In this document: positions 659 to 48,900 of the stretch, in pieces
How positions within the stretch are numbered: the first letter of the stretch is position 1
Layout of the letters: every line of letters begins with the position of its first letter
Origin: a virus
Lineage: Duplodnaviria > Caudoviricetes
IMG/VR virus record: IMGVR_UViG_3300008120_000066
Coordinates: 1 to 62,373 of that record
DNA length: 62,373 nt
Reading direction: 5' to 3' (one strand)
Program-made: the position numbers and the translations under genes
Notes under the pieces: generated by a model
Databases searched by the model: none
Told to the model about the DNA's origin: nothing
What the model saw: the letters and a program-made list of their open reading frames with translations, nothing else

Positions 659-2425
659 ATGGCAAATACATCTAAACTAAGAGTAACAGAATTAGATTTT
701 GATGATATAAAAAGTAATTTAAAAACTTTTTTACAGTCTCAATCTGAATTTACAGATTATGATTTTGAGGGATCTGCGCTTTCAGTTTTACTTGACCTTT
801 TAGCATATAATACTCATTACAATTCAGTCTATGCAAATCTAGTTGCTAATGAAATGTTTTTAGACAGCGCATCAAAACGTGCGTCTGTTGTTTCATTAGC
901 AAAACATTTTGGATATACACCAACATCAAGAGTATCACCAAGAGCAAATATTAATTTACAGGTTGTTGTTACAGGTTCTCCAACAACATTAACACTTCCG
1001 AAATATACAACATTTACAACTACACTTGATGGAACAGATTATACATTTTATAATCTATCTTCTTTGACAAAAACACCAATCAGCGCTAATACCTTTTTGT
1101 TTGATAGTATTGAGATTGTTGAGGGGACACCATTATCTTATCGCTACACTGTATCTAATAATCAAAGATCTTTTGTTATACCAAATGTAAATGTAGATAT
1201 TACTACATTATATGTAGAAGTTCAAAATAGTGCAACAGATGCTACGAAACATACATATGTTAAAGCAACTGATATGGTATCCGTAACATCAACCGACAAA
1301 GTGTTTTTTGTTGAAGAAACACGAGATGGTCTATTCCAACTTGTGTTTGGAGACGATACTATTGGCAAACAATTAGTAAATGGTAACATCATAACTATTA
1401 CATATTTGTCATCTAATGGAATTACAACAAACAATTGTAATTCGTTTAATTTGGGAACTACTGCTGGTTTCACAGTTAACAGTTATACTATTACTCTTAA
1501 CACAAAAGCAACAGGTGGAAAAGAAAGAGAAAGTATAGAATCTATTAGATTTAATGCTCCCAAGTTCTTTAATACACAAAACAGAGCAGTTACTTCAGAA
1601 GATTACAAAAATATTATTGTTAGAGAATATGGTCAAATAGATGCTATTTCAGTTTGGGGTGGTGATGTAAATGATCCACCAATATATGGTAAAGTTTTTA
1701 TCTGCGCGAAACCAAAAAATGGTTTAAGTCTCAGTGATTCTGATCGTTATTTTATTAGACAGATCTTAAAGAATAAAAATGTTGTTGGTATTACACCAGA
1801 ATTTATTGACCCCGAATATTTGTACATGACAGTGGAAGCTGATACGTATTTTGATCCAGGACAAACATCAACTTCTAGTTCTACTCTACAATCAAATATT
1901 ATTTCAACAATTATTAATTACAGAGATTCTGATCTTGATAATTTTGATAGTATTTTTAGAAAGAGTAAACTGTCTAGATTGATTGATTATACCAACAAAG
2001 CGATTTTAAATAATAACATTAGAACAAAACTCTACAAAATATTGCCAATAAATACTGAATTAGAAGTGGACTATGTGATAAACTTTGTAAATTCTATCAC
2101 AAAAATATACTCATCGTCATTTAGATTAGTTGGTGATTCAGTTGATTATTATATGGAAGATAATGGTCAAGGAACAATGATACGTTATCATTACAACAAC
2201 AATATCAAAGTAATTGATGACTTAGAGTTTGGTTCTATTAACTATAAAACTGGTGTTCTAACAATACCACAGGTTCAATTTTCATTACTAACAGATACAT
2301 GTAAAATTTATGCAGAACAAGAAATACCAGATGTTAATTCTGTTAGAAATCAGATATTAACAATTCTTGAGAGCGATATTACAGTAAACGTAAGTATTGA
2401 TACAAGAAAATCGTTAATAAGGTAA
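659..2425 (+). CDS. gp6: Baseplate wedge subunit gp6
   Basis: Motifs LDFDDIK.NL..FL..Q.EFTDYDFEGS, NEMFLDSA..R.SVVSLAK, QNRAVT.EDY and WGG...PP.YGKVFI. Confidence 0.95.
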   Translation: MANTSKLRVTELDFDDIKSNLKTFLQSQSEFTDYDFEGSALSVLLDLLAYNTHYNSVYANLVANEMFLDSASKRASVVSLAKHFGYTPTSRVSPRANINLQVVVTGSPTTLTLPKYTTFTTTLDGTDYTFYNLSSLTKTPISANTFLFDSIEIVEGTPLSYRYTVSNNQRSFVIPNVNVDITTLYVEVQNSATDATKHTYVKATDMVSVTSTDKVFFVEETRDGLFQLVFGDDTIGKQLVNGNIITITYLSSNGITTNNCNSFNLGTTAGFTVNSYTITLNTKATGGKERESIESIRFNAPKFFNTQNRAVTSEDYKNIIVREYGQIDAISVWGGDVNDPPIYGKVFICAKPKNGLSLSDSDRYFIRQILKNKNVVGITPEFIDPEYLYMTVEADTYFDPGQTSTSSSTLQSNIISTIINYRDSDLDNFDSIFRKSKLSRLIDYTNKAILNNNIRTKLYKILPINTELEVDYVINFVNSITKIYSSSFRLVGDSVDYYMEDNGQGTMIRYHYNNNIKVIDDLEFGSINYKTGVLTIPQVQFSLLTDTCKIYAEQEIPDVNSVRNQILTILESDITVNVSIDTRKSLIR

Positions 2426-2429
2426 CTAG

Positions 2430-5400
2430 ATGGTTGCGAAACAAAAGAATTCATTAGTAGTAAATTTTCAAGCGCCAGAATTTATACGCAGCGATTATGC
2501 GAAATTCATCACATTCCTAAAAAGTTACTACGAATATCTAGAGCAAACAGATAAAACTCTAGATGTTATGAGAAATCTAGATACATATAATGATATTGAT
2601 GAGCAAACTAATTCTCTAATCTTAAGTGTTTTTTATACAGCATTTTTACCAGATTTTCCACAGATATTATCAGCAGATAGAAAGTTTCTACTAAAAAACA
2701 TAGTAGACTTTTATAATTCTAAAGGTTCTAATGAATCTATTAAAGCATTTTTTAGAATTGTTTATGGTGAAGAAATCCAGATCTATCTACCAAAGATTGA
2801 TATTATTAAAGTCGGCGCTGGTATTTGGAAAAAACGATTTAAGATCAAACTTACTGGTATTTCTTCTGGAACAATTTACGAATTGCTTGGCCAAGAAATA
2901 TATCAGATCAGTTCAATAACAGGAAACAAAACTGTAAGAGCAAGAATTGTTGATTATGAGGAACTAACTGGATCTGTAATTATTACTGCAGATAATATTG
3001 TCCTAAACTTCGATAGTTCTATTCCTGTTTATACAACAAGAAATGATACTGGAGCAACAGTAACATTTACTCTAATTAATCAACTTGCTTCTGCAACAGT
3101 CTCCTATGGTGGTTTAAATTATTCATCTGGAGATAATGTTGAAATATCAACAGCCGTATCAAATACAGAAAATATACAAGTAGACAATGTAAGTTATGGT
3201 GTTGTTAGAGATATAATTTTAAACACTAATGGAGACAATTATTCAACATTAGATGAGATTTCATTTGATGACAATTATCTATTTAATCCTTCTGTTAATG
3301 TGTCAACAGCTGATAATACAATTACAATTAGCAGTGGAGTTTCTCTCACAACAGGAGATATTGTTACATATCGTGTAACAGTTGATAATAATAATAATGG
3401 AACAGCAGTTGGTGGATTAGTTGATGATACGAAATATTATATTATCACAGTATCCAACACAATTGTTAAACTAGCTACAACAAAAGAAAATGCTATTAAT
3501 GGTATTAGTATTGATCTTACCACTGTTGGTTCTGGAACAAAACACTATCTTGTTTACGAGTTACCAGGTGTTGTAAAAGCAAAAGCAAAAATTACAAAAA
3601 CATCTAGTGATGATCTGTATGGAGACGTTGCTGATCTTGAGGGTGAATACCCAACAATAGTTGACGATGAGGATAAACTGTTGTTTGAGGATGGTCAAAC
3701 AATTAAAGAAGAACTTGGCGAAACAAATACTTTTAAATCAATAACAAAAAACAAGTATAATACAGATGATGATCGAACTGGAATTTCTACTGGCTCGATT
3801 ACGTCAGACGACTTTGGTATTATGCCAGAAAATCAAGAGAATGATTCAGTTGTTTATACGAGATCATCATATAATGCATCTAATGGATTAATTAGACAGT
3901 TTCTTCCTGCAGTTTCTGATCCAAATAAACAATTTTCTCTTGAGTGGGCGCAGAATAAAGGTATTACTGCTGTTCTACAAGATGAGGAGTTGAGGGTTGG
4001 TTTCGCTTATGAAGATTCCTACGCAGCATCAGGAAGTTATACACCTTCTGATCCAATGACAATTGTTATTGAGTTTCAAAGCAATGAAGATTATAATAAC
4101 TTAGAGAGATATGAACTCGTAAGAACATGGGGAACTACAAGTTATCCAGAAATTAAAAATATTACGAGTTGGGATTATTCAACACCAACACAATATGAAG
4201 ATTTTAATCAGTTTAGTGAATTACAACACATTGGAATATATCCAGAAAGCGCAGCTGTTGTTTCTTATGGAGAAAAAACAGTTTCTCAGAAGGGATTTGA
4301 TCCAAATAACAAACCAATTATTTACATTCGTGAGCGTGTATCTGATGTTGATTCTTCATTTACTACTACACAAAGACCTTGGGAATATAAATTCGTATTT
4401 AAAGAAAACACAAAATCTAATATAAAAATATATGTAAATTCTCAACCAATAAAAACTGAGAATCAACTCATTAAGACAGAAGACAGTGCATTTACTCTGT
4501 TTAATGAGGACAATACATATTTGTTTAAAGAAATTTATACTGATGTTGATACTAAAGCAATAGATCCATCAATTGCTGGTTCTAATGATACATTTACATC
4601 AAATGATCATGGTTTTGTTCAAGGCGATAAAGTAAAATTTACAACCGATGACTCTACATCACATCATAGTAGTGTTGTTCCACCAATGGAATCTTTACTA
4701 AAACAAACAACTATTGGTGTAGCTTATACTGGAAAATTTTCTGATACAATTATTGCTAAATCAACTGGCGCTGATTCAGCTGTAATAACAATCGTAGATG
4801 ATGACACATCATATTATTTAAACAGTAATTATGGTGTCACACCAACAATTACAACAACAGGAACATTGCCTGTTTCTGCTCCTTGGGCAGGAATTGCTAC
4901 AAATGGTTCTGGTCAACTATTGCTTGTTAAGAAATCTAATAGTTCAATAGAAGGTGTTAGCGCATCATATTCCACAGACCCAACAAACGTATACTATACT
5001 GCAACATTATCTTCTACAACTTCTGCTCCAGCTTGGACTGAAGCAACATTACCAATTACAGGTGTATGGGGTAATGTAGAATATGGTAATGGAAACTATG
5101 TTGTTGTTCAGGGAACGGGAAATCCAAGAAAAGAACCAACATACAAATTTGTACCAGGAACACGTGCAGTTTATTCTTCAGATGCGACAAACTGGACACA
5201 AGTTACTCTGCCAATTTCAGACTACTGGACAGATTTAAAATTTGTTAATGGTAGATTTTTCTTATTGCCATATGGTAATATTAGAAATGAATTAAATGGT
5301 TCTGTTTATGAATCTGTTGTTGCAGGAGAAACACTTGAACTAAGAGCGCCTGTTGGTGCTGTGTTTACACGTGTTTTGTTTTCAAGTTATGGTGATCCTA

Positions 5401-8400
5401 CTGGAGCAAATGGTAATTATTATGTTGGAACTGTTGATTCCCCATTATCAATCAGTCAGGTTGAGAAACAGTTCTTAGGAAAAAACTATTCTTCGATTGT
5501 TGCTTCTGATACAATATTTGGAACAACAAATGTGGCTGGTAAAAGACTTTATGTCAAACTAGAATATGCGTACCAAAACCAAACACTTGGTTTGATGTCA
5601 TTTAATGGTTCAATCTGGGATCAAATAACATTTCCATTTAGTAAATGTGCTGATCTTGCTTATGGAAATGGTGTATATGTCCTTACATCATACAACAATA
5701 CAAGCGATTATGCGTACTCATATGATTTAATAAAATGGAAAACAGCAAGATTTCCGATTTCCGACAAAGAATTAAACAATTATGAAAATTTAGATAAGTC
5801 GTTTTGGTCAAGTGTTGTATTTGGTTACGATAAGTTTATTGCAACTTTCAACAGTGATCCTAACAAAGTAGTTAATTCACAAATTAAAAACAAGTTTGCT
5901 GTTTCTTCTGATGGTATTAACTGGGATACCCATACTAACGCAAGTTACGCATCAACAATAACTTCAACAGGATCAGCTTCAACAGGAAAAGGTTATTTTC
6001 TTGGTGGTCTTACGAGAATTCAATCTCCTCTGAATAATACTAGTTATACGGAAATTGATGGCATTAACTTTACTACAGAAGCAGCAATAAATCCAGCTGC
6101 TGCGTTAGTGCAACAAAGGTTTGGGGCATTTTCAACGCAATCAACAACAAAAGGATATGTAGCTGGTGGTGTTTATAATCCTGTCCCTTCATCTCCTGTA
6201 GGTGTGTGGATTAATTCCTTTGAGAATATTACTTTCTCTACGGAATCTGGATCTGCTATGGGTATAACTCTTGCTGCTGGTCGATATCAAGGAGCATCAA
6301 CACAAAATACAACAAGAGCATATTTTCTTGGAGGGAACGCAAGTGGTTCAGTTACATCAGAAGTTGATGGTTTAGTATTTTCATCTGAAACATATGATAA
6401 TCCAGCTTCGACATTAACAAATATTACTTTAAGTAATTCTGGATTAAGTTCAGCTACAAAGGGTTATACTCTTGGTGGTTATAGTCCATCAACTATTATT
6501 GAATCAATAGTATTTTCTAGCGCATCTACTAGTGTTCTTGGTACTGCACTTCCTACCGCAAGGAGCAGCGCAGGCAGTGTACAAAATTTGACAACAAAAG
6601 GATATGTGGGCGGATCAACTTCGCCATTTACTACAAGTATTGTTGGATTTGTTTTTTCGAGCGAATCTGTAACTTCTCAATCTGCTGTTTTGCAAATAGC
6701 ACGCCAAGAGGCTAGTGGTGTTTCTTCCAGCACTAGAGGCTACTTTGGTGGTGGAGTATCTTATGTTACTAGTCCAACAGTATTTACAAATTACGACGAA
6801 ATCGATGGTATTAGATTTGACACAGAATCATCGGTAAATCCATCTGCAGTGTTAACAAGTTCAAGATCATTTGCTTCTGGTGTGTCTTCTCCATCGACAG
6901 ATATTTCAATATCAACTAATTATGTGCCTGAGATAGAGCAATCTATTTATGACCCAACTGGTAAAGTATTTGCTTTCGTTGCTCAGAATAAAAAAAGAAC
7001 AGATGTAACAACTACTACTACTTTTACAAATTATGGTAATGGTTATTTTGGTGGTGGTCTTACTCCATCAACTAGTAGTGAAATTGATGGTATTAATTTT
7101 CAAACAGAAGCATCAGTAAATCCAGCTGCTACACTTGCTACTGCAAGATACATACCAACTGGAATGATGAGTTCAACTATTGGTTATTTCTTTTCGGGGT
7201 GGAGTAGTACTGCTGTATACGAAATTGATGGTATTCGTTTCTCAAACCAAACAGCAGTAAATCCTTCTGCTAGTTCAACTGCTCCAGTTGGTGGTCACAG
7301 TTCAACAACTGGTTCAATGTCGAATGATGGACAGCGTGGCTACATGCATAGTGGTCATATATCTCCACTCAACACTAATATGATACAAAGGTTTGATTTT
7401 CCAACAGAAACAGCTTTTCAACTTGTTGCTACTGCAGCATTACCAAGATACATGGGCGCTGGTGGATACTCTGCAGTAACCAACAAAGGTTATTATATGG
7501 GTGGTTATTCATACACAGCGCATGGTGTACCAGCAGATGGACCAACAACTGAAATTGATGGTTTAGATATGACATCTGAAACAGCAATTAATCCATCAGC
7601 TGTTTTATCTGTTCCTGTTTCTCATAATACGAGTTTAAATTTTACAAATTATGCCGTTGTTGTTTCTGGTTATGGTACTGGGGGAACAACTATAAATGAA
7701 GTAGAAACATTTACATTTGATACTGAAAGTGTAACGAATGTCGCTTGGACAATGCCAGCAGCAAGATTTGGAATAACTGGTGTTCAAAACATAAATTTGA
7801 ATAAAGGATTTATTGCTGGAGCTCAATCACCAGCAGTTCTTTCTTCAATGCTCAATTTTAACAATACAACATTTGTATTTGCTAATATTGCTGCTACTCT
7901 TGCTGCTGCAAGAGGATATATGGGTGGTGTTTCAGAACCAACAAGCACAACATCTTACAGCAATACAAGTTTATTTAACAGCGATAATAGTAGTATTGGT
8001 TTGTTTACGATGAAAGACCAATTGACAAAAAATAAATCGTATCTTGTAAATTATGTTTCATCTTCTCAATTTAAGTTGGCTAAATCAAGAAAAGATTTAA
8101 TTGATGGTGTATATGTTACAACTTCGCCACAAATAACTGACAATACAGGTTATGCAAAATTAATTACTGATCGTATTGACGCTGGTTCTCAAGACTCATT
8201 CACTAAAGCAAGTAAAAATGCGCAATTTAATGTGTATGCTAAGAAACAAACTGCTGGATTTCGTTCTTCGACAATGAAGATTAATCAAAATCCGAATGTA
8301 GCAACATACGATGATACTGAGAAGAGCTTTAAAAATTATACAAGCGATAACAAGTATTACATTTATGAGGCAGTTAATGAATCTACTGAATATCTTGTTA

Positions 8401-11400
8401 TGGAAAGATCTGATATTGAAGGAACAGATCAGGTAAACATTGAGTTAGAGTTAGATAAGAGAAGTGAGACTGAAAAATTGCATTATGTTACGTATCCATA
8501 TCTTGCTTCTGAAACATCAATAGTTTCTAAAGTTCAGGCAAATAATGAAATCGATATTCCAAACTACAGTAAAGTCAGACTGTTTGTTGATAGTTCTGTC
8601 CTTCAATCAGTAAATAGCGTTGAGAGAAATCCAGAAGAACTAATCTATAATGATTATGGTAGTTTTGATTTATCAGAAGATGCTACAGTTTTAAATAAAG
8701 AGAGAGATGAATACTTCAATCTTTCAAATCCTATTGTTTCAGAAACAAGCACAACGAAAACATATCGCAATAACTATAATGTTGTTCCATTTGGGCACGA
8801 GGATAAACCATATGTTGTTGGATTAACACCAGCAACAAATCAATTTTCTAGTGGACCTGGAGAATTTGGTAATACTGGTATTACTTCGTTTGTACAAAAT
8901 ACTAATATACGATTTAATGCTGATGCTGCATTTTTAGACAACACATTTTATACAATAGCAGCGAGTACTGAGCAAGCATACTACGATAATGATCCAAATA
9001 AACCGACAAAAGATGGAAGAACATTCCACACATTCTCATTTAATGTACCAAAAGAAGTCGGTGCGACATTTGATAATCCACTAACTGTTGCGATTAAAAA
9101 TCTTGTGACAAATAGACAAAATAACACAAGCCACAAAACAGTGGATTATGGCGATAAGATTTTGTTGGGAGAAACTGAAAAGTTATCAACAATAGTTCAA
9201 CTTCAAAAGAGACCAATAGAATGGACACCAGTTCTTACAGGAAATGTAAACTGGATTACTACAAATCAAAAAAATCTACGAATTTCAACAACAGGTTTTT
9301 CTGGTCAATCAACTTTCTATCCATACTATGAGCCAATAATTAAAGAAGTAAAAAATAATGATTTAATAAGAACCGTAAGTTCTAGCACTATTCTTAGATA
9401 TAACAACTTACCTTCTTATCTGGCTGGTTTACAAGCAACAAATTCAATTAATGATTCTGACACAGCAGCATTTTATACCAATAATAGAGTTCGTGTTTTC
9501 TTGCTAAGAAATCCAAGTTGGAATGCTGTTGATACTACAACTTGGCTAGCATTAACATTCGAAACAAACAAAAATTATATTGTTGACAATGCTACTGGCA
9601 CATCGCAGGCTATAAGTGTTTTCTACAAAGATTTTGAACCAGGAGGTCCATATACACTTGATAATAATTCTGCAATATATCTTTTCCAAAATTTAGCAGG
9701 TCCAAGTGCTGATAATTCTAAATATGGATTCTATAAACCAGGAACAGGCGATAATGTATGGGATGCGCAGGTGTTTTCTCGTGAGGGATTTATAAGAAAT
9801 GTCTTTGCCAGCGCAAGAATTAATAGAGTTACTGCAAATAGTGAGTGGATGTTTGGTTTAAATTCAGACCCCTCTAATAATGCAAGTTTCGATACAATCG
9901 ATTATTGTTGGTATCCTAACAGTAGTGGTGCTGCTAGCATTTATGAAAGTGGTTCATCTATCGGAACCTTCGGTACGTATACCGCTGGAAGTACATTTGA
10001 GATTACATATGATGGAACAAATGTAATTTACTATCTTGATGGTAATGAAAAAAGAAGGGTTACAAGATCAATAGGAAATCCATTGTTCCTTGATAGTTCT
10101 CTTTACAAGCAATATGGCACTAATACTACTGCTGTTTCAATGTTTGATGTAGATTTTGGTGAATTAAATGTGCCAGTAAGTTTTGATTTACCAAAAGTTC
10201 CAACTGACACAAGTGTTCCAGATGAAATATCTTTAGAAGATAATAGCGCAACAATTGCAGCAGAAACAAATATCTTTGGATTGCATGATGTTGGTGGAAA
10301 TTATTCTAATGTCACACCTTCTCTAGCGATTGAATTTTATTCTCCATCTCTTGCTTTAGATGTTGCTAAAAATGGTTTATCTAATTCAAATTCTAGCTAC
10401 CACATGGTTTATTACTGCGATAAAGCAGAGTATTTGAATGTTTCTACCGACACGCAGAAAACAACATACAAATTTTACAATTGTTGGAGTCCAACGAATT
10501 CAAATACTTTAAATGTAGCATCAACAGTAAACGATTATATTGTAACGATTCGTGATTTAACAAAGAATGATTATATTATTAAAAAGAAAAACGATTTTAT
10601 TAATAAGATAACAACAAATGGACTGTTATATCGTGATGTTTGGGTTTCGAAATCTTCTGACGATTATGGTAAGTATGTTAAATTCTATCCATCCTATGCA
10701 GATTCTGTTGCTGATACAAATATAATTTCGTTATCAACTTTAAATATCGGAACAGCAAAAACTTTTAATCAAACATCATATTCTGGTAACTCAATTGTTG
10801 CTGAAGATCCTAGCGTATCAAAAATTGGACACTCCTATTATGGAGCAATCGAAGAGAACGATATTTTAAGAACCTTCCGCTTTGATCCTAATGTTGATGT
10901 TTCTGCAAATGCGATTACTATTTCAAATCATGGTTTACGAAATGGAGATAGAGTGTTATACCGAGTAGATTTTAATGGTGCAAAAATAACTGGTCTAACA
11001 GATAACACAATTTATAGTGTTATACAGAGAACAGACAATACATTAAAACTCTCAAGCGACGAAACTACAGCAATTACACTTACTGCTTCTGTTGAAACTG
11101 GAAAGAGAAATTATTTGCAAATTTATCCAGAATCTTTAGACTTTGGATCAACTAAAACATTATTTAATACTAAAACTGAATACTCTGTTTCTTCATCAGA
11201 TCTCGTTCCATATTCTATCGCAACAGGACTAATCTCAAACCTTGGAGAAAAGCAATATGTTGTTGAGGGGAGAAATGATATTCTACAGGTCCAAGATACT
11301 ACATTTGCCTTTAAAAATCCAGTAGAATTTAATACTGGAGATTATATTCGTATTGAACTAGGTGGTGGGGATCAATTAAAAGACCATGATGGAACCATAT

Positions 11401-12656
11401 TAACAGGAACACAATACGCATATGCAATTAGATACAATGATAGATTGTTCGCTTTTGTTAAAAGATATGAAGAGGCTCTTGACGGTATTACATTCTTAAC
11501 TGGTTATTATAATAATTCTCAATCAGTGTTTAGTAATACAATATTTTACAAAAATGAATCAAAATATAACAGTGGATCATGGTTTAATGCTGGACAAAAC
11601 GCTTTACCACCATACATTAAAGATAATATGAAAGTGAAATTTTATGGTACATCTTCTGGTAAAACTCCAGGAGCAAGCTACTATGTTGATGCCTCATCTA
11701 ATTCATTTACATTACATAACACAGTAGCATTAAGTGGTGTTCAGACATTTACTAATACAGACTACAATAATCTTGTTGAGTTTTCACCTGTTAGACCGAC
11801 CTACCTTAAAATTGTATCCCCAATGATTACTGGAACTGTTAAAGAAGATGTTACTATTTCTTACAGTCCATATCCAAGTAGAGAAACAGGAATAATTGAG
11901 AACTTTGAATTAACGAACAAAGGAAATTACAATAGAATACCAAATGCTACAATCATAACAGATGATGGTAGACTTGGAACTGGCGCAGAAATTTATCCAA
12001 TTGTTGACGACATTGGAGTTGTTAATTCAGTTACATTTATTGATGGTGGCACACACTCTGTTAACAGAACACTATATCTGCCTTATTCATTCTTCTCTGA
12101 AACTATTACTGGAACATGGGAGATTGGCGAAAAAGTATCAAAATCTGGAACAGAAATTGGAACACTTGTTGAAAAAAATGGAAGATACTTTAAGATTGAA
12201 CAGAATGGTTCAGCAACAACTGTTACCTATGCAGATACATTAATCGGTATGATATCTGGAGCAACAGCTGTTGTTGGAAGAACTCTAAATATATCTGCAG
12301 CAACTAATGCAAGACCAGCAAAAATTACAACAACTACACCACATTATTTAAATACTGGTGATTTTGTATATGTGTCTGGTATTAATTCAACTGTTGCGAA
12401 TGGAATATATTATGTAACAGTTACTGGAGTAAATACTTTTGCTCTATTTACTAATGTAACAATGGCAACACCATATGATTCCAGATTAACATCAGCATAT
12501 GTTTCTGGTGGAACAGTTTCTGCTGGTTTATATACAGCACAAGGAACTGCTATACCTGGAGAAATAACATTATCCAGCGCTAATGGTCCAACAAACAACT
12601 ATGAGAATGATAAAAATCTTATTCTGCCGACTTCTAAAGTTCAAGATTCTTACTAA
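2430..12656 (+). CDS. gp7: Giant baseplate wedge protein gp7-like with many inserted adhesin-like domains (frame continues to 12875 after an in-frame TAA)
   Basis: N-terminal PEFIRSDY.KFITFLKSYYEYLE and FYNSKGSNESIKAFFRIVYGE; lies between gp6 and gp8; the C-terminal QDSY-*-YQDYSY...HPAG motif straddles the stop. Confidence 0.85.
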   Translation: MVAKQKNSLVVNFQAPEFIRSDYAKFITFLKSYYEYLEQTDKTLDVMRNLDTYNDIDEQTNSLILSVFYTAFLPDFPQILSADRKFLLKNIVDFYNSKGSNESIKAFFRIVYGEEIQIYLPKIDIIKVGAGIWKKRFKIKLTGISSGTIYELLGQEIYQISSITGNKTVRARIVDYEELTGSVIITADNIVLNFDSSIPVYTTRNDTGATVTFTLINQLASATVSYGGLNYSSGDNVEISTAVSNTENIQVDNVSYGVVRDIILNTNGDNYSTLDEISFDDNYLFNPSVNVSTADNTITISSGVSLTTGDIVTYRVTVDNNNNGTAVGGLVDDTKYYIITVSNTIVKLATTKENAINGISIDLTTVGSGTKHYLVYELPGVVKAKAKITKTSSDDLYGDVADLEGEYPTIVDDEDKLLFEDGQTIKEELGETNTFKSITKNKYNTDDDRTGISTGSITSDDFGIMPENQENDSVVYTRSSYNASNGLIRQFLPAVSDPNKQFSLEWAQNKGITAVLQDEELRVGFAYEDSYAASGSYTPSDPMTIVIEFQSNEDYNNLERYELVRTWGTTSYPEIKNITSWDYSTPTQYEDFNQFSELQHIGIYPESAAVVSYGEKTVSQKGFDPNNKPIIYIRERVSDVDSSFTTTQRPWEYKFVFKENTKSNIKIYVNSQPIKTENQLIKTEDSAFTLFNEDNTYLFKEIYTDVDTKAIDPSIAGSNDTFTSNDHGFVQGDKVKFTTDDSTSHHSSVVPPMESLLKQTTIGVAYTGKFSDTIIAKSTGADSAVITIVDDDTSYYLNSNYGVTPTITTTGTLPVSAPWAGIATNGSGQLLLVKKSNSSIEGVSASYSTDPTNVYYTATLSSTTSAPAWTEATLPITGVWGNVEYGNGNYVVVQGTGNPRKEPTYKFVPGTRAVYSSDATNWTQVTLPISDYWTDLKFVNGRFFLLPYGNIRNELNGSVYESVVAGETLELRAPVGAVFTRVLFSSYGDPTGANGNYYVGTVDSPLSISQVEKQFLGKNYSSIVASDTIFGTTNVAGKRLYVKLEYAYQNQTLGLMSFNGSIWDQITFPFSKCADLAYGNGVYVLTSYNNTSDYAYSYDLIKWKTARFPISDKELNNYENLDKSFWSSVVFGYDKFIATFNSDPNKVVNSQIKNKFAVSSDGINWDTHTNASYASTITSTGSASTGKGYFLGGLTRIQSPLNNTSYTEIDGINFTTEAAINPAAALVQQRFGAFSTQSTTKGYVAGGVYNPVPSSPVGVWINSFENITFSTESGSAMGITLAAGRYQGASTQNTTRAYFLGGNASGSVTSEVDGLVFSSETYDNPASTLTNITLSNSGLSSATKGYTLGGYSPSTIIESIVFSSASTSVLGTALPTARSSAGSVQNLTTKGYVGGSTSPFTTSIVGFVFSSESVTSQSAVLQIARQEASGVSSSTRGYFGGGVSYVTSPTVFTNYDEIDGIRFDTESSVNPSAVLTSSRSFASGVSSPSTDISISTNYVPEIEQSIYDPTGKVFAFVAQNKKRTDVTTTTTFTNYGNGYFGGGLTPSTSSEIDGINFQTEASVNPAATLATARYIPTGMMSSTIGYFFSGWSSTAVYEIDGIRFSNQTAVNPSASSTAPVGGHSSTTGSMSNDGQRGYMHSGHISPLNTNMIQRFDFPTETAFQLVATAALPRYMGAGGYSAVTNKGYYMGGYSYTAHGVPADGPTTEIDGLDMTSETAINPSAVLSVPVSHNTSLNFTNYAVVVSGYGTGGTTINEVETFTFDTESVTNVAWTMPAARFGITGVQNINLNKGFIAGAQSPAVLSSMLNFNNTTFVFANIAATLAAARGYMGGVSEPTSTTSYSNTSLFNSDNSSIGLFTMKDQLTKNKSYLVNYVSSSQFKLAKSRKDLIDGVYVTTSPQITDNTGYAKLITDRIDAGSQDSFTKASKNAQFNVYAKKQTAGFRSSTMKINQNPNVATYDDTEKSFKNYTSDNKYYIYEAVNESTEYLVMERSDIEGTDQVNIELELDKRSETEKLHYVTYPYLASETSIVSKVQANNEIDIPNYSKVRLFVDSSVLQSVNSVERNPEELIYNDYGSFDLSEDATVLNKERDEYFNLSNPIVSETSTTKTYRNNYNVVPFGHEDKPYVVGLTPATNQFSSGPGEFGNTGITSFVQNTNIRFNADAAFLDNTFYTIAASTEQAYYDNDPNKPTKDGRTFHTFSFNVPKEVGATFDNPLTVAIKNLVTNRQNNTSHKTVDYGDKILLGETEKLSTIVQLQKRPIEWTPVLTGNVNWITTNQKNLRISTTGFSGQSTFYPYYEPIIKEVKNNDLIRTVSSSTILRYNNLPSYLAGLQATNSINDSDTAAFYTNNRVRVFLLRNPSWNAVDTTTWLALTFETNKNYIVDNATGTSQAISVFYKDFEPGGPYTLDNNSAIYLFQNLAGPSADNSKYGFYKPGTGDNVWDAQVFSREGFIRNVFASARINRVTANSEWMFGLNSDPSNNASFDTIDYCWYPNSSGAASIYESGSSIGTFGTYTAGSTFEITYDGTNVIYYLDGNEKRRVTRSIGNPLFLDSSLYKQYGTNTTAVSMFDVDFGELNVPVSFDLPKVPTDTSVPDEISLEDNSATIAAETNIFGLHDVGGNYSNVTPSLAIEFYSPSLALDVAKNGLSNSNSSYHMVYYCDKAEYLNVSTDTQKTTYKFYNCWSPTNSNTLNVASTVNDYIVTIRDLTKNDYIIKKKNDFINKITTNGLLYRDVWVSKSSDDYGKYVKFYPSYADSVADTNIISLSTLNIGTAKTFNQTSYSGNSIVAEDPSVSKIGHSYYGAIEENDILRTFRFDPNVDVSANAITISNHGLRNGDRVLYRVDFNGAKITGLTDNTIYSVIQRTDNTLKLSSDETTAITLTASVETGKRNYLQIYPESLDFGSTKTLFNTKTEYSVSSSDLVPYSIATGLISNLGEKQYVVEGRNDILQVQDTTFAFKNPVEFNTGDYIRIELGGGDQLKDHDGTILTGTQYAYAIRYNDRLFAFVKRYEEALDGITFLTGYYNNSQSVFSNTIFYKNESKYNSGSWFNAGQNALPPYIKDNMKVKFYGTSSGKTPGASYYVDASSNSFTLHNTVALSGVQTFTNTDYNNLVEFSPVRPTYLKIVSPMITGTVKEDVTISYSPYPSRETGIIENFELTNKGNYNRIPNATIITDDGRLGTGAEIYPIVDDIGVVNSVTFIDGGTHSVNRTLYLPYSFFSETITGTWEIGEKVSKSGTEIGTLVEKNGRYFKIEQNGSATTVTYADTLIGMISGATAVVGRTLNISAATNARPAKITTTTPHYLNTGDFVYVSGINSTVANGIYYVTVTGVNTFALFTNVTMATPYDSRLTSAYVSGGTVSAGLYTAQGTAIPGEITLSSANGPTNNYENDKNLILPTSKVQDSY

Positions 12657-12875
12657 TATCAAGACTATTCATATGTTGTTCGCTCTGGTGTTTCATTTGA
12701 GAATTGGAAACCTTATTTTAATAAACTTGTCCACCCAGCTGGTATAGCTGTTTTCGGCGAGGTTGACTATGCTAATGTAAATAGTGGTCAAGTATTAATG
12801 GGCAACACAGAGGTTGTGAATAACCAAATAAATAATACAAAGACGACTACATCAACAACTGTAACAATAACATAA
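12657..12875 (+). other. In-frame C-terminal continuation of gp7 beyond the TAA (72 codons)
   Basis: Reads YQDYSYVVRSGVSFENWKPYFNKLVHPAGIAVFGEVD...TVTIT* in the gp7 frame and ends 1 nt before the gp8 ATG. Confidence 0.85.
12827..12834 (+). promoter_or_regulatory. Possible late promoter (AATAAATA) for gp8
   Basis: About 42 nt upstream of the gp8 ATG, inside the gp7 extension. Confidence 0.45.
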
Positions 12876-12876
12876 T

Positions 12877-14883
12877 ATGCCAGCAATCATTAAAGACAAA
12901 ACAAAATACCAAAGCGCTGCAGACTACAGAGGATTGTTGTCTGCAGGTACAACCAGTTTGTATTATTACTTTGGGAATCCAGTTTCATGGGTAAAATACC
13001 CAGGTGGAAGTTATAACGAATCAACACCCCCAACGCCAAAAGATACATTGTTCGAAGAAAAAGAAATTTGGGATGGTGTTATTGGGTTGAAAAAAGTTGC
13101 GCCAGCAGATACTAAACTTGGTTTTAGGAGAATAGACTGGGCTTCTGGGCAATATTATGATATTGTTGGCGATTATACAAACACCAAACCACTTTCATTA
13201 GCAAGATCTAATAGTTTAGTTCTTGTTGATGTAAATGGAGATGGCGCAACCTATCGTGTATATCGTTGCGTTGATAATAGGAGTACTTCGACTGGTAATC
13301 CTATTGCATCTACAACTAAACCAACACATACTACTTCAACAGTAACAACTACAGCAGATGGATACAAATGGAAATATCTTGGGCAACTTGACTCAACAGA
13401 TATAAATGAGTTTTTAACCACAACTGTTTGTCCAATACCAACAACACTGTCAACAGCTACTTTATCTGGTGGAATTTGTTCAGTCGTAATGACATCTCGT
13501 GGAACAGGATATACTGGAACACCAACAGTAACTATAAAGGGAGATGGTGCAGGTTTAACACTAGGATCACCTGTTCTGTCTGGTGGACAAATTGTTTATA
13601 TTCCTGTAACAGCTAGTGGTTCAGGTTATACATATGTTGAACTTTCGATATCAGGGACAGGAACTTCAGCAACTGCAAAAGCAGTTCTTTCTCCATCAGG
13701 TGGATTTGCATATAATGTTGAAAAAGAAATAGAACCAAATTTTTTGTGCGTTAGAGTAACAAATATTAATACTGATTCTTATTTTGTTGCAAGAGGAACG
13801 GCTCCTACTACTTATGGAACTGCTACTGCTTTAGATAGTGATAATCCAAATGTAAATGGATTAGTTTACAGAAGTGTTGGTCTTATTGAAAATCCATACA
13901 ATTATGGCACAACTACAAAAGCGACATCAAATTTGTTAACTAATTTTAAAGAATTTAGATTCAATGTAAATGTAGGATCTGCCCCATCATTTGGTTCTAG
14001 ATATTACACATCAGCTAGTGGTTCTTCTAATGCTGTTTGTACAACAGTTGGATATAGAGTTAACAGTGTAACATTCAATACAACTACTGATGTAAATACT
14101 TCAACCAATCAAATTACAATTTCTGGTGGCCACTCATTTGTTACAGCAGAGCCAGTAGAATATGCTGTTGGATCAGGAACAACTGTAGTTGGAAGTGGAA
14201 TCAGTAATGGAGCAACTCTTTACGTAATTAAAGACAGTAATACTCAAATTAGACTTGCGACTACAGATGCCAATGCTAATGCTGGTACTGCTATTGATAT
14301 TACTGGAGCTGGAAGTGGAACTGTGCATAGGTTAATATCTATGAATTCACCAAAAGCGTATGTTTCTTTTATTCAAACAACGCAGCAAAAAACTGTAAAT
14401 AATCCCCTTGTTTCCACAAACGCATTAACTTATATGTCTGGAGATCCGATTTCTAGCATAAGAATTGGTCCATTCGAAGCATTTAATGGATCTTCTGCTA
14501 GTTTTGTATCATTATTAAATGACACAATTACAATAAACAGTCACCCATTTATTACTGGAGATCAAATTACATACAGTAATGGTGGTGGCACTTCTATTAT
14601 AACAAGTACAGGTTCATTAACAAGTGGCGGAACATATTATGTTATCAAATACGATAATGATTCGATTAAATTAGCAACAACACTTGCGAATGCGAATGCT
14701 GGTACAGCAATAGATTTAACTGGGCTTGGAACAGGAACTAGTCATAGCATAACTTATTCTGGAAGTGATGCGTCTTATAACCCAACAGTTGAAAGATATT
14801 CTGGAAGTATAATTTTCGCTGAGTATAGAACACCAGCAACAAGATCAATCTCTGAAAAATACAGATTCCTTCTTGAATTCTAA
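12877..14883 (+). CDS. gp8: Baseplate wedge protein gp8 with two inserted beta-rich modules
   Basis: Motifs PPTP.D...E..EIWD..IGLKKV, RIDW.SG..YD and VYRCVDN...STTKPTH...TADGYKWKYL; C-terminal SGSIIF.EYR.P..R....E...LLEF. Confidence 0.88.
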   Translation: MPAIIKDKTKYQSAADYRGLLSAGTTSLYYYFGNPVSWVKYPGGSYNESTPPTPKDTLFEEKEIWDGVIGLKKVAPADTKLGFRRIDWASGQYYDIVGDYTNTKPLSLARSNSLVLVDVNGDGATYRVYRCVDNRSTSTGNPIASTTKPTHTTSTVTTTADGYKWKYLGQLDSTDINEFLTTTVCPIPTTLSTATLSGGICSVVMTSRGTGYTGTPTVTIKGDGAGLTLGSPVLSGGQIVYIPVTASGSGYTYVELSISGTGTSATAKAVLSPSGGFAYNVEKEIEPNFLCVRVTNINTDSYFVARGTAPTTYGTATALDSDNPNVNGLVYRSVGLIENPYNYGTTTKATSNLLTNFKEFRFNVNVGSAPSFGSRYYTSASGSSNAVCTTVGYRVNSVTFNTTTDVNTSTNQITISGGHSFVTAEPVEYAVGSGTTVVGSGISNGATLYVIKDSNTQIRLATTDANANAGTAIDITGAGSGTVHRLISMNSPKAYVSFIQTTQQKTVNNPLVSTNALTYMSGDPISSIRIGPFEAFNGSSASFVSLLNDTITINSHPFITGDQITYSNGGGTSIITSTGSLTSGGTYYVIKYDNDSIKLATTLANANAGTAIDLTGLGTGTSHSITYSGSDASYNPTVERYSGSIIFAEYRTPATRSISEKYRFLLEF

Positions 14884-23706: not shown

Positions 23707-26700
23707 ATGTCTAAAAGAGTCACCTCGCGAGATCTAGTAAAAAAAGTATCTGCTACATCCGCTAATGATCTAGTTGTAAAAGTAAAATACGCAGCTTCTC
23801 AATTAGCTGTTTCTGTAAAAACAGCACAAGCAGATTTTAATGAGCGTGCTAAAGATGTAAAAGCTGAGCTCCAAACTTTTGTTAGTGCTGTTAATGTAGT
23901 TTTCGATATAGATAACTTTGCTGTTGAACTAATATCGAGCGGTGTTGTAATTGATGATGTAACAATTAATTTACTCAAAAATTTAGTCGAAACACCAATT
24001 CTTTCAGACATTATTGCTCAAAAGGATGTTACTAAACTCCTTGGCGATATTGTCACACTCAATGAATCTCTTGCGTTCGCATATTCCAAAGCTCTTGAAG
24101 AAATAACTTCCACCTCTGACAATGCAGATGTTTATCTTAATAAGATAAGAGAAGACACGGCAGCTGCAGCTGACTCTCTCTCATTACTAATTAACAAAGC
24201 ATTCGCTGACATATCATCTATCTCTCAAGATGACACTGTACAATATATAAAAATTCTTGGCTCAGTAATAAATACTGCACCAGCAATTGGCTATTTTGTT
24301 TCTGGACAGATTGAATATTATGTACAAGTTGGACCAGGGCAATTTAGTCCTGTGGTTACTGGATCAACCAGTATTTCTGGTGTAAGTTTTACTACAGATA
24401 CAACAGTAAATTCAAGTAATAGTTTTTTAGCATTTAATCAAACAAGAGCTACTGGTGTTTCATCATCTGTAGCAGGATATATTTCTGGTGGTTATATTAC
24501 TGCATTTGGTGGTGGTATATCAGGTATACTTGCAAACGTAAATAAAATAGACATTTCAACAAGTACGTTGTCGACAGCTTCGTTTTTACATACTACTAAT
24601 TTTGCAAAATTTTCAGCAACTGGGGTTGAATCAGACACTAGAGGTTATTATCTTGGTGGTCATAATGGCAGCACTGCTCTCAACGAGATAGATGGAGTTC
24701 AATTTTCTAATGACACCTACATAAATCCAGCAGCATCAATACCTTTAGGTTGTTCTGCTGCTGGATTTTCATCATTAGCAAAGGGATATGCTGTAAAAGG
24801 AACAACATCAAATCCACTTGGTTATATATCAAATGTACAATCTATCAGTGGCATAAGATTTGCTGACGAAACTGGGTTTCTAATTGGAGCAGCTGGTGGT
24901 CTTGAGTTAGAATCTGCGTCATCAGAGACAACAACAAGAGGATATGTTTTTGGTGGACACTATAATCAATCTCGTGTATCACACTTAAGATTTGCTGACG
25001 AAACTTATAATATTGACGGAGTTTCTCTTTTATCTGCAAGAGAATCATCAGCAGGACTTTCATCTGCTAATAGTGGATATGTTGGTGGTGGTAATCGTTC
25101 AGACATGCAAAAATTTAATTATGCTAACTCGACAGTTAATACAATCGCAGCAAGTTTAGGCACAAATACAATTGGTCCTACGAGCATACAACCAAAACTT
25201 AATCGTCAAACAACTGCAGTAATCTCTGACAGTATTGGTAAAGGTGTTGGCAAACAAGCAACTGGCGATACTGCTAGAGGAACTGACGCAACAACAAAAC
25301 GACCAAACAAAGGATTATCTGATACTGTTCGTAGCACTGAAACATTATCATTTTTTACAAGCAAAAATATTTCTCAAGACATATCTCGAATCGCAGAATC
25401 AATTGAGAAATATTTTTCAAAACAAGCAACTGGCGATACTGCTAGAGGAACTGATGTAACAACAAAACAACCAAACAAAGGATTGTCTGATACAGCTTCT
25501 TTCTCTGAGGTCATAACAAGAATAATAGAAAAACATCTCACAGATAATGTAACAACATTTGAGGGTGTTACTGGTTTCGATGGAATTTCGTTTGTTCTTG
25601 ACAATACAGAAACGAATACATCTTCTGCATTTGATGTTTTCTCAAGAGTAGTTGATTACGTTAGATCTGGTGCTGCTTACAATTTAACACATACATCTAC
25701 TGTATCAGATACAATTACTAGCAAAGATGTTGGTAAAGGTTTAAGCGATACTGCTGAAGGTGATGACGCATTATCAAAAGAGCCAGGAAAAGCATTAAGT
25801 GATACTGTTCAAGCAACTGAAACATTTACTAGATTGCTTATATTTGGTCGTTCATTTGCTGATACCTCTAGTGTCGCTGATGAGTTAACTAGATCTGTGG
25901 AGTATAGTCGTTCTGGAGCAACATATAATTTGGTAGATATTACCAGAGGAACTGATGCGATATCGAAAGAACCTAACAAAAGACTTGGTAATGTGTATTC
26001 ATCAATTGAACAGGACAAATTACTAAGCGAATATCTTAATATTCCAGATGACATTCAAGAAAAACAAACTCTTACTGCAGTATATACACCAACTGATCAA
26101 AACATATCAAGAGCAACAGACGCAAGAACTAAACAAATAGGAGTTGGCTTAACAACTGCGAGAGGTGGTAGTAGATACACTGGAACCTTTCTTGGCGGAG
26201 AATTTGTTTTAAATATTGGTTTTATTAATTCAACTACTCACCTACTAGAAGGAACAGCTAATCCTACAAGTGCTGCTTGGTTAGCGATAAAAACATTTGA
26301 AGCTGGGCAGGTTGGTGTTATAATTGATACTGTTGCTCCAGGTATTGGTCGTCAATATCCCTTTACTGTTGTTTCTTGGCAAGATGAACCAACTCGTGAG
26401 CTCCTAATAATATCATCAAATATTCCACAAGGTGCTGAACTTGATAACTTTGCAATGGACATTATTGTTAGACCAACATCATTTCAAACTGCAACTAGAG
26501 CAAGTGAAGCGATAACTAAAAAAGCAGTAACAAAAGGATTAAGTGATATTGCTCGTGGTACTGATGAGTTTGCTAGAGTTATTACATACAATCGTTCTGG
26601 CGCAACGTATAATCTGGTTCATACTGCTAGAGGAACAGATACTGATACGATACAGTATACAAAAGTTGCTGGTGGTGAATCAACTGCTGGTTTAACTGAC

Positions 26701-28191: not shown

Positions 28192-28386
28192 GATCGATTT
28201 AGATTACAAGATCAAATTACCACAAAAGAACCTGGAAAGGGATTAAGTGATGTCGCTCGTGGCACTGATACAATTGCAAAAGATATTAGTATACAAGCAA
28301 GTGGTCAGGCGAGAACAAAACTTACTGAATTTACACCTATAAATTATACTCAAGACCTATTACACATTATTCAAGCAGATCTATGA
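28192..28386 (+). other. In-frame continuation of the 1494-aa scaffold protein beyond the TGA (64 codons)
   Basis: Reads DRFRLQDQITTKEPGKGLSDVARGTDTIAKDISIQASGQARTKLTEFTPINYTQDLLHIIQADL*. This matches the protein's own internal repeats and ends in an ATGA overlap with the next ORF. Confidence 0.75.
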
Positions 28387-37800: not shown

Positions 37801-38782
37801 TGTTCATACTTATTCTTCTTCTGGCGAATCACCAGAAATTCCAATTTTCTTATATTCTCCTCAAGTAGGTATGGCAGCAAATCACTGGGGAACAGCTGTT
37901 ATAATGGATGGTCGTTTTGATGACGATAAATCTTTCGTGTTTACGCAGGGTATGCCATCTATTGTTCCTGTTTCTGCTACTGCTCCTATTGCCCTTATGA
38001 GTCTTCGTGTTGCTCCAACAGTCGATTCTGGTGTGACAGGTATTCTTGGCGCTAAAGAAGTTATTAATCGTATGCAGTTAACACTTAGTTCTCTTGGTAT
38101 TACAACTAACGGAGCGTTTTTCGTTCGTCTTGTGTTAAATCCAAGATTTGTTGTTTCTGGTATTGGTTCTGGAATAAGTTCGCCATTACTAACATTCCAA
38201 CCAGTTGGTGGATCAAGTCTCTCGCAAGTTTGTTTCCACTCTGTTGCTCCATCTGGTGCTGCAACAACATCAACACAGGTGTTTGCTCTTGGTGGTGAAA
38301 CAGTTTATGCGTTTTATACAGAACAAGGTGGTGGTGCATTGAACTATACTGTTACTACAGTAGACTTAAATAAAGTGCGTGATCTGGGTAACTCTATTCT
38401 TGGTGGTGGCACACAAAACTCTTTATTGAGCGAAAGATATAATAACATTTATCCTGATGGACCAGATATATTAACAGTTGTTGTTCAGAACGTGCTTTCT
38501 CCTGTGCCGCAAACTGCTCTTGGAACTGTTAATGTAACTAATGGTCAATCTGTTGTAACTGTTACAGATTCTTCAAGAGTTGATGTTGGGCATATCGTAA
38601 CAACAACAGGTAGCGGAAGTGGATTACCACTCGGTTCATTTATTCGTACTGTTGTTCCTGGTACAACGACAACAACATTAAACATGTCAAAACTAAACAC
38701 AACTGGCTCAGCAGGTTCATTTATATTAAGTCCGCCTTCGAACATTGCTGCTCGTATGTCATGGACAGAAGCGCAGGCGTAA
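34850..38782 (+). CDS. Large virion structural/fibre protein, paralog B
   Basis: Same conserved blocks as 30422-33901 ([49 protein letters not shown]) with different inserts. Confidence 0.75.
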
Positions 38783-48249: not shown

Positions 48250-48900
48250 ATGAGACTAATTAGAGAACAAGTAACAGAAACAAAATTTATTGTTGAAGAA
48301 AAGCTCGGTAAAGGAAAACAGTATTTTATCGAAGGTATATTTCTTCAATCAGAACTAAAAAATCGTAATGGACGCATGTATCCAGAATCAATTATGGATA
48401 GAGAAGCGTCTCGTTACATAACAGAATATGTAGAAAATAATCGTGCTTACGGAGAACTAGGTCATCCAGATACACCGACAATTAATCTTGATCGTGTATC
48501 CCATTTGATTGTAGATTTACGTAAAGAAGGTACAAACTACATTGGTAAGGCAAAGATTTTAGAAACCCCAATGGGTGCTATTGCTCGTGGTCTTTTAGAG
48601 GGTGGCGCAAGTCTTGGTGTTTCTAGTAGAGCACTTGGTTCTTTAAAAGAGGACAAAGATGGTGTTCAAATCGTTCAAGACGACTTTATGCTGTCAACTG
48701 CAGCTGATATCGTAGCCGACCCATCGGCTCCAGATGCTTTCGTTCGTGGCATTATGGAAGGAAAAGAGTGGGTTTATGTTGATGGAAAATTTGTGGAGAG
48801 ACATATTGAAGAGACAAAGAGGGCAATCCAAAAGGTTTCCTCTCGTAACTTAAACGAGCAAATGCTCAAAGAATTTAAAAAATTCTTGATGAAATTGTAA
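48250..48900 (+). CDS. gp21: Prohead protease gp21
   Basis: IEGIFLQ....NRNGR.YP; GELGHP....INLDRVSH; LGVSSRALGSL; DIVADPSAPDAFV.GIME. Confidence 0.96.
   Translation: MRLIREQVTETKFIVEEKLGKGKQYFIEGIFLQSELKNRNGRMYPESIMDREASRYITEYVENNRAYGELGHPDTPTINLDRVSHLIVDLRKEGTNYIGKAKILETPMGAIARGLLEGGASLGVSSRALGSLKEDKDGVQIVQDDFMLSTAADIVADPSAPDAFVRGIMEGKEWVYVDGKFVERHIEETKRAIQKVSSRNLNEQMLKEFKKFLMKL

Follow-up and report, generated by a model that had tools for sequence, protein, structure and literature searches.

An in-frame TAA in the gp7-like baseplate wedge gene of a T4-like phage is private to one metagenome-assembled contig

We analysed a metagenome-assembled phage contig of 62,373 nucleotides (IMG/VR record IMGVR_UViG_3300008120_000066, taken as a whole and referred to as the window), in which a giant gp7-like baseplate wedge gene is interrupted by a TAA codon ahead of its conserved C-terminal end. 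The features at issue are as follows.

659-2425, plus strand: gp6-like baseplate wedge gene, 588 aa, upstream neighbour (Pfam Gp6-like_1st, E 1.5e-21; Gp6_C-I; Gp6_C-III)
2430-12656, plus strand: gp7-like giant baseplate wedge open reading frame as written, 3408 codons plus TAA (Pfam PF23786)
12654-12656, plus strand: in-frame TAA; the base A at 12656 is private, other copies having T or C (Tyr) and distant relatives a Phe codon
12657-12875, plus strand: conserved gp7 C-terminal 72 codons (YQDYSY...W...VHPAG..FGE) and the true stop TAA at 12873-12875 (translation, PHROGs)
12877-14883, plus strand: gp8-like baseplate wedge gene, 668 aa here, 683 aa in its intact form (phrog_438, baseplate wedge, 3.1e-55)
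28171-28191, plus strand: second cluster of private changes, in the structural gene 23707-28386 (protein alignment with relatives)

The gp7-like gene is flanked by gp6 and gp8 homologues, as expected for a T4-type gp7, and sheath, portal and major capsid genes lie downstream of the gp8-like gene. The 588-aa gp6-like protein was found in its exact form on 3 contigs. An N-terminal wedge domain was recognized at residues 82-125 of the gp7-like product (Pfam Baseplate_wedge, PF23786; E 2.1e-11, 44.3 bits, cut-off 27), and the gp8-like product fell just below the cut-off of Pfam Phage-Gp8 (24.9 bits, cut-off 25). The open reading frame list gave 3408 codons from ATG 2430, and then TAA. On the plus strand, positions 12642-12674 read CAA GAT TCT TAC TAA TAT CAA GAC TAT TCA TAT, and translation of the window confirmed the original prediction that the TAA at 12654-12656 stands at a Tyr position, between QDSY and YQDYSY. 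Past the stop, the same frame was open for the predicted 72 codons (12657-12872) and terminated at TAA 12873-12875, leaving a single base, T 12876, before the ATG of the gp8 homologue at 12877. The probability of 72 open codons is about 0.004 at the base composition of the window, so that the run is more than chance, and 3408 + 1 + 72 gives 3481, the length of intact gp7 cluster members. No in-frame ATG, GTG or TTG was present between 12657 and the HPAG codons, as had been stated, and the first in-frame ATG after 12657 was the M of VLMGN; separate translation of the gp7 tail was thus ruled out.

The tail alone matched phrog_4406 (2.1e-11), the baseplate wedge family phrog_2885 (1.3e-07), phrog_17744 and phrog_38653, and its matches to PHROGs annotated as 'baseplate wedge subunit' fell near the C-termini of these families. 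It was identical or near-identical to the C-termini of relatives, with 3 synonymous differences and 1 non-synonymous difference from relative L019. In a 79-sequence alignment of aquatic T4-like relatives, D57, Y61, Q62, Y64, S65, Y66, H86, P87 and G89 were invariant. When the C-terminal module was searched against the PDB, T4-type gp7 came first with profile A2 at a marginal E of 0.05 and was the sole chain below E 1 with profile A3, again marginally (E 0.41); both alignments covered T4 gp7 residues 860-916, around ...VHPxGF..., and a PDB search with a single C-terminal sequence returned only a chance match (E 0.83). AlphaFold2 models of the C-terminal 267 residues of L002, an intact relative, from a single sequence (mean pLDDT 30.3), and of the 132-residue module with the 79-row alignment (pLDDT 52.2, pTM 0.20), were too poor for a fold search. 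The claim that this is a conserved gp7 C-terminal motif of T4-like phages held strongly among aquatic T4-like relatives, whereas its extension to T4 gp7 itself was only marginal. By major capsid protein, the nearest cultured phages were Methylophilales phage Melnitz (65.5%) and Synechococcus/Prochlorococcus myoviruses (about 62%). Megablast and tblastn searches of the region against GenBank phages gave no match, so there was no cultured close relative to compare.

The interrupted form was restricted to the window. Logan contigs from all four public runs compared (X1, X5, X6 and X8) carried T at 12656, giving TAT (Tyr), and in the X1 contig (depth 27.8; a possible source sample) this position was the sole difference from the window in 901 bases. 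Twenty runs shared the sequence, four of them flagged as possible sources, and none exceeded a 0.98 share of 90 sampled words, which would fit the absence of A-bearing words from all 20. The run comparison used assembled contigs, from which minority variants are lost, and it may thus have missed a minority A allele that is real. The exact truncated 3408-aa gp7 protein was found on 1 contig only, that of the window. The 90% cluster of gp7 comprised 31 members, 15 of which were listed, and all eight full-length proteins among those listed (3478-3482 aa) had Tyr at the site, within QDSYYYQ. One of the proteins, P0008 (3481 aa; 3 contigs, from JGI/IMG, Logan and ENA), equalled the read-through product at 3480 of 3481 positions, differing only by Y in place of the stop.

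All 15 pattern matches in IMG/VR had Tyr (TAT in 5, TAC in 10) and none a stop, the codons at the site being TAC TAT TAT in L002 and TAT TAT TAT in L003 and L004. Among more distant relatives, collected with a search pattern that left out the TAA codon position itself, the best 80 of 376 confirmed carried Tyr (57) or Phe (23, as TTC or TTT), again without any stop. A scan of the site in JGI metagenomes, whose coverage of records very close to the window may be incomplete, yielded one contig with TAT, which is the same contig as L019 and not an independent count. None of these relatives keeps the TAA, and the four Logan assemblies, which are independent, agree on Tyr. The original prediction had held that TAC or TAT in relatives would mark the stop as an error or rare variant and speak against recoding, and this is the pattern observed. 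The TAA occurs solely in this assembled contig, and the intact Tyr form is the population consensus.

The window held other private lesions. The gp8-like gene carried an in-frame deletion of 45 nt at junction 13162/13163, 506 nt downstream of the TAA and without flanking repeats; the resulting 668-aa form was present on 1 contig, while the seven 683-aa cluster members were present on 14, 9, 3, 3, 2, 1 and 1 contigs. Two private substitutions, 18 nt apart, were found in the structural gene 23707-28386, namely CAC (His) at 28171-28173 and a premature TGA at 28189-28191; relatives show Pro at the first site (8 of 8) and Ser at the second (8 of 8). An IMG/VR search with the C-terminus of this gene found no relative, so the residue of relatives at the TGA is known as Ser from proteins only. 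After the premature TGA, the frame ran on through 64 codons and ended at TGA 28384-28386, in overlap with ATG 28383, and the exact 1494-aa protein was found on 1 contig only. By comparison, exact copies of 17 of the 21 window proteins present in the collection occurred on 2-34 other contigs. A scan for long open stretches after stops detected only one in-frame TAA in the window; apart from the stretch after 28191, the other long post-stop stretches were neighbouring genes of an ordinary kind, each with its own ATG (38786, 49976, 52196 and, for a small gene, near 47075). The contig is a 35%-complete fragment, whereas the same phage has been assembled elsewhere to 125-168 kb, and its size would fit poorer coverage in the assembly of the window. 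The argument that the assembly is not error-prone because it lacks frameshifts was contradicted by the second in-frame premature stop and the 45-nt gp8 deletion, both private.

These results indicate that the TAA is either a consensus error or an allele that is rare and defective, and not programmed recoding. Its being private, with Tyr or Phe in all relatives, supports the single-base error or nonsense variant that the original prediction offered as the simplest of its explanations. We consider it probable that the TAA is a consensus error of one metagenome-assembled contig and that the phage encodes an uninterrupted 3481-aa gp7-like protein. A single T-to-A miscall at 12656 would turn TAT (Tyr) into TAA; the phage itself would then make an ordinary gp7-like wedge protein, with its conserved C-terminal module ending 1 nt from the gp8 start, and no readthrough or hop over a stop would be needed. 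The technical cause may be that the stretch came from one or a few poor reads or from a local misassembly, and not from a real allele. Three lesions in two spots, each probably disabling an essential virion gene, favour a locally bad consensus over a replicating genome. Against an error, assemblers seldom invent bases and some reads probably carried the A, and sequencing errors do not typically take the form of a clean 45-nt deletion free of flanking repeats. Moreover, two of the three private substitutions are nonsense, where we estimate that about 1 in 15-20 would be expected from random errors, an excess that an error leaves unexplained in a sample of three. Alternatively, the TAT-to-TAA change could be real and rare, the assembler having taken a minority path, which we regard as possible but doubtful. 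The gp7 of such a phage would lack its conserved last 72 residues, and the allele would persist briefly or by complementation from co-infecting intact phage; the gp8 deletion may belong to the same reading, as may the TGA in gene 23707. Assembler output reflects read content, and the repeat-free gp8 deletion resembles a real in-frame deletion more than a base-calling error. The same gp7 tail carries a 29-nt frameshifting deletion, relative to L020, in L010, an IMG/VR contig of a related phage, and the few differences from L019 show no decay downstream of the stop, as for a very young allele. However, the allele was absent from the contigs of all four runs compared and from the other gp7 cluster members, at the coverage of that cluster given above (31 members, 15 listed, 8 full length), a 62-kb haplotype with three lesions, each disabling by itself, hardly suits a replicating lytic phage, and lethal alleles would be expected to stay far below the frequency that an assembler would choose.

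Recoding at the site had been raised in two forms. In the first, either an ochre suppressor tRNA encoded by the phage or a near-cognate tRNA-Tyr would read UAA as Tyr, so that full-length gp7 is made at a set ratio to the truncated form. The stop does coincide exactly with a Tyr position, the frame beyond it is intact to the normal gene junction, and with 35% of the genome in the record a suppressor tRNA could sit elsewhere, but the stop was conserved in none of the 15 pattern matches, 80 relatives, 8 full-length cluster members or 4 runs. TAA is also the commonest stop in the window, ending 30 of 44 open reading frames of at least 80 aa; global TAA reassignment is thereby ruled out, and efficient ochre suppression would lengthen most gene products. 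ARAGORN found no tRNA in the window, except for one malformed call inside an open reading frame, an Rfam scan of the window gave no family at the gathering score, and the predicted RNA fold of 12645-12764 (120 nt) was not unusual (z -0.20; 76 of 200 shuffles folded at least as well). The stop is followed by T, and UAA-U is the strongest terminator context in bacteria. The TGA at a Ser position in gene 23707 would require a second, different suppressor, and phage stop-codon recoding is described for UAG in the portion of the literature used here. With an unconserved stop, TAA as the usual terminator and no tRNA in the window, this form of recoding received no support, and we judge it very unlikely. 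In the second form, peptidyl-tRNA-Tyr would leave TAC (12651-12653) and re-pair with TAT (12657-12659), skipping the TAA, so that nine bases encode one Tyr. The matched take-off and landing codons do flank the stop, and one tRNA-Tyr is expected to read both TAC and TAT. Yet the arrangement is not conserved, relatives carrying three sense codons at the site, and no stimulatory structure was found. The product would lose two of the three Tyr of the YYY run, keeping the invariant Tyr before Q and losing the preceding conserved aromatic (Y or F in all 80 relatives). Synthetic constructs hop with low efficiency. The accessible text of a review (PMC5009743) knows of no natural occurrence of an in-frame stop-hop. 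Stop-hopping thus found no support either, and it seems scarcely credible here. It is extremely unlikely that the A at 12656 is real in a sub-population of this abundant freshwater phage that obtains enough full-length gp7 for assembly by near-cognate tRNA-Tyr readthrough or a TAC-to-TAT hop; if true, neither an in-frame stop-hop nor ochre readthrough would have a natural precedent in an essential baseplate gene of a phage.

A single contig of an uncultivated virus can show nonsense changes and deletions that are private to it, in genes that are perfectly conserved apart from them, here three lesions in three structural genes, and comparison with other assemblies of the same population resolves such cases quickly. 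For annotation, gp7 should be treated as one gene of 3481 aa, and like caution applies to gp8 and gene 23707-28386. A real stop that is decoded would make this phage one of the few bacterial viruses with UAA recoding, and would be relevant to the tolerance of stops by essential virion genes.

Compared with T4 gp7 (PDB 5hx2, 5iv5 and 5iv7; 1032 aa), the window has the same gene order, gp6 - gp7 - gp8, and the N-terminus of its gp7 matches Pfam Baseplate_wedge. Unlike T4 gp7, its protein is 3481 aa long, against 1032, with large inserted repeat regions, and the QDS-Y/F-Y-YQDYSY block belongs to the aquatic relatives and is absent from the T4 alignment. In the classical amber and ochre mutants of the T4 baseplate, one base change creates a stop in place of a sense codon in an essential wedge gene, and these laboratory mutants, grown on suppressor hosts, are viable only with suppression or complementation. 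The change in the window, unlike theirs, is seen in a single metagenome contig, and perhaps no virion carries it. With the synthetic stop-hops of Weiss et al. 1987, as described in the accessible text of PMC5009743, and with T4 gene 60 bypassing, the site shares a stop flanked by codons that pair with the same peptidyl-tRNA (TAC ... TAT), but here the arrangement lacked conservation, and neither a stimulatory nascent peptide nor a stem-loop was found. Like crAss-like and other gut phages with suppressor tRNAs, the window has an in-frame stop within a late structural gene. Those phages, as far as the sources at hand describe them, have many genes with a recoded stop (UAG) and encode their suppressor tRNAs, whereas the window has one TAA and one TGA, both private, with no tRNA found and TAA as its main terminator.

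The window is a linear IMG/VR virus record of 62,373 bases with a G+C content of 36% and a CheckV completeness estimate of 35%. On the + strand, 12642-12674 reads CAA GAT TCT TAC TAA TAT CAA GAC TAT TCA TAT, in which TAA (12654-12656) interrupts a gp7-like baseplate wedge gene lying between gp6-like and gp8-like genes:

659-2425: gp6-like gene, upstream of gp7, with Pfam gp6 domains
ATG 2430 to TAA 12654-12656, + strand: gp7-like ORF as written, 3408 codons
beyond TAA 12654-12656, + strand: open frame of 72 codons, beginning YQDYSYVVRSGVSFENWKPYFNKLVHPAGIAVFGEV... and closed by TAA 12873-12875
12877-14883: gp8-like gene, downstream of gp7; phrog_438 baseplate wedge (3.1e-55); Pfam Phage-Gp8, 24.9 bits, slightly below its cut-off (25)

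The original prediction of an in-frame TAA followed by 72 open codons up to the gp8 ATG was confirmed. ATG 12877 lies one base past TAA 12873-12875, and no in-frame ATG, GTG or TTG occurs between TAA 12654-12656 and the HPAG codons. At the base composition of the window, the chance of 72 open codons is ~0.004, and the 72-residue tail alone matched several PHROG families of baseplate wedge subunits or virion structural proteins (phrog_4406, 2.1e-11; phrog_2885, 1.3e-07). These results indicate that the tail is true coding sequence and that the observation is correct.

The long ORF carries a Pfam Baseplate_wedge domain close to its N-terminus (E 2.1e-11). For the C-terminal module we built two profiles, one from 8 relatives and the other from 79; T4-type gp7 ranked top with the former (E 0.05) and was the sole chain below E 1 with the latter (E 0.41), and both aligned to gp7 residues 860-916. 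The nearest major capsid protein was that of Methylophilales phage Melnitz (65.5%), with Synechococcus and Prochlorococcus myoviruses at ~62%. The phage is an aquatic T4-like myovirus and the long ORF its giant gp7 homologue, with 3481 aa when read through versus 1032 aa in T4 gp7. D57, Y61, Q62, Y64, S65, Y66, H86, P87 and G89 were invariant in the 79-sequence module alignment, so that the conserved C-terminal motif originally ascribed to gp7 of T4-like phages holds within the aquatic relatives, while the match to T4 itself is marginal.

A long array of ~50-residue repeats (…KGY..GG….EIDG..F..E….NP.A.L…) was seen in the translation of gp7 (2430-12875) at residues ~1180-1900. The PHROG match to this region was phrog_19111, a family whose function is not known (E 1.3e-35, strongest over 1388-1801), and Pfam gave no match there. 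The module D-S/N-x-[YF]-YQ[DN]YSY…W…HPAG..FGE (loci L022-L101) is widespread, with at least 376 confirmed stretches in IMG/VR, and lies mid-protein in the giant virion proteins of some PHROG families (1837-1907 of 3231 in phrog_4406; 3459-3499 of 6136 in phrog_701). The label 'head closure Hc2' on one PHROG family matching the module looks doubtful.

The TAA was seen in none of the relatives compared. The nearest accessible relative (L002, identical with L019 and L021), whose DNA is 95-96% identical to the window, has TAC TAT TAT at the site, and two others (L003 and L004) have TAT TAT TAT. An IMG/VR DNA scan, with the third base of the stop codon left free in the pattern, returned 15 stretches, ten with TAC, five with TAT and none with TAA; the sole JGI metagenome match to the site was the L019 contig again. 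Distant relatives were scanned with a peptide pattern beginning past the codon in question, and in the best 80 of at least 376 confirmed relatives the residue was Tyr (57) or Phe (23), with no stop within 40 residues of the site. The exact truncated 3408-aa protein is recorded on the window only. Its 90% cluster has 31 members; among the 15 listed, eight are full-length (3478-3482 aa), and all eight contain QDSYYYQ. One of these, P0008 (3481 aa; from JGI/IMG, Logan and ENA; three contigs, the longest of 168,040 bases), is the same as the window's read-through product at 3480 of 3481 positions, the sole difference being Tyr versus stop, and 3408 + 1 + 72 gives its length.

The same population was traced in 20 public runs (14 studies; lake and freshwater samples for the most part), in which at least 0.83, and never more than 0.98, of sampled words of 12200-13100 were present. 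Position 12656 was T in the Logan contigs of all four runs compared (X1, X5, X6 and X8, at depths of 27.8, 13.3, 7.75 and 15.3), a comparison of assembled contigs rather than reads, in which a minority A allele could go unseen. Over 901 bases, 12656 was the only difference between the window and X1, a run flagged as possible source. The population consensus at the site, possible source sample included, is TAT. The TAA is not a feature of the phage, and five lines of evidence agree on this.

A recurrence check placed the lesion among others. We looked up 22 window proteins, 21 of which were present in the collection, and 17 of these recurred exactly on 2-34 other contigs; gp7, gp8 and the products of 23707-28191 and 34850-38782 were found on the window only, the last without any individually private residue. 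Exact copies of many window proteins occur on 13-34 contigs (NCBI, JGI, Logan, ENA), the phage population being common in freshwater data. The private lesions outside gp7 were:

junction 13162/13163, in 12877-14883: in-frame gp8 deletion of 45 nt (15 residues), 506 nt past the TAA
28171-28173, in structural gene 23707-28386: missense, CAC (His), with Pro in 8/8 relatives
28189-28191, same gene: premature TGA, 18 bases past the His codon, with Ser in 8/8 relatives

The deletion falls inside the conserved N-terminal part matching Pfam Phage-Gp8. Its 15 residues are present in all seven 683-aa cluster members and in L019; at least 33 contig records carry the 683-aa form, and the window alone carries the 668-aa form. 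Past TGA 28189-28191, the frame runs for 64 more codons and closes with a TGA that overlaps ATG 28383, which gives a true gene of 1559 codons; products of its relatives have 1559-1577 aa and show an indel of 18 residues around residue 678. Thus the contig holds an in-frame TAA at a Tyr position, an in-frame TGA at a Ser position, one missense and one deletion, all private and in two tight clusters, which makes any single recoding mechanism implausible. The private TGA, missense and deletion also remove the earlier argument that frameshift-free core genes spoke for a clean assembly. Elsewhere, the IMG/VR contig of a related phage (L010:6852-7000, against L020, reverse strand) is without 29 nt just past QDSYYYQDYSY; this loss shifts the tail frame, so that here too an assembled contig has a disrupted gp7 C-terminus.

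The TAA is probably a consensus error of this contig, as the clustering of lesions, the coincidence of three probably lethal ones and their absence from all other assemblies argue. A plausible cause would be a fragmented assembly with thin coverage, some stretches of which rested on a single low-quality read or read pair, or on a few of them; the contig represents 35% of the genome, and other samples assemble the same phage to 125-168 kb. That the assembler picked up a real but rare defective allele is possible but less likely. In its favour, bases are not made up by assemblers, a miscall would not typically leave a clean 45-nt deletion, and L010 likewise has a deletion in the same gp7 module. 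Nonsense changes make up two of the three private substitutions, above random expectation, although n = 3. Both readings agree that the gp7 of the phage is a normal 3481-aa protein and that there is no programmed decoding of the stop. A single-base error or nonsense variant, the simplest option originally offered, is best supported, every other copy compared having a Tyr codon, or a Phe codon in some distant relatives.

Programmed readthrough of the TAA is very improbable, since the stop occurs in no relative or other assembly compared and no recoding device was seen in the window. TAA is the commonest terminator there, closing 30 of 44 ORFs of at least 80 aa, and the base following it here is T; in bacteria, no context terminates more strongly than UAA-U. 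No unusual fold was seen in the 120 nt beginning at the stop (z -0.20 versus shuffled sequence). The suppressor tRNA originally proposed was found by neither ARAGORN nor Rfam within the window, 35% of the genome, where no Rfam family reached gathering score. ARAGORN's single malformed call ('tRNA-???' with a two-base anticodon, 48587-48685, inside ORF 48250-48900) is probably false, as Rfam has no tRNA there at gathering score. The stop named in the consulted portions of the phage stop-codon recoding literature is UAG.

Stop-hopping is the least credible reading. The TAC and TAT flanking the TAA would suit take-off and landing, but the hop product would be two residues short in the YYY run; the Tyr left over would still precede Q like the invariant Tyr, but with the conserved aromatic position ahead of it lost. 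Hops over a stop between matched codons are described in the sections consulted of PMC5009743 for synthetic E. coli constructs, and a natural case is stated there as not known. Compared with those constructs, the present site likewise has matched flanking codons, TAC/TAT, but a hop here would cost conserved residues.
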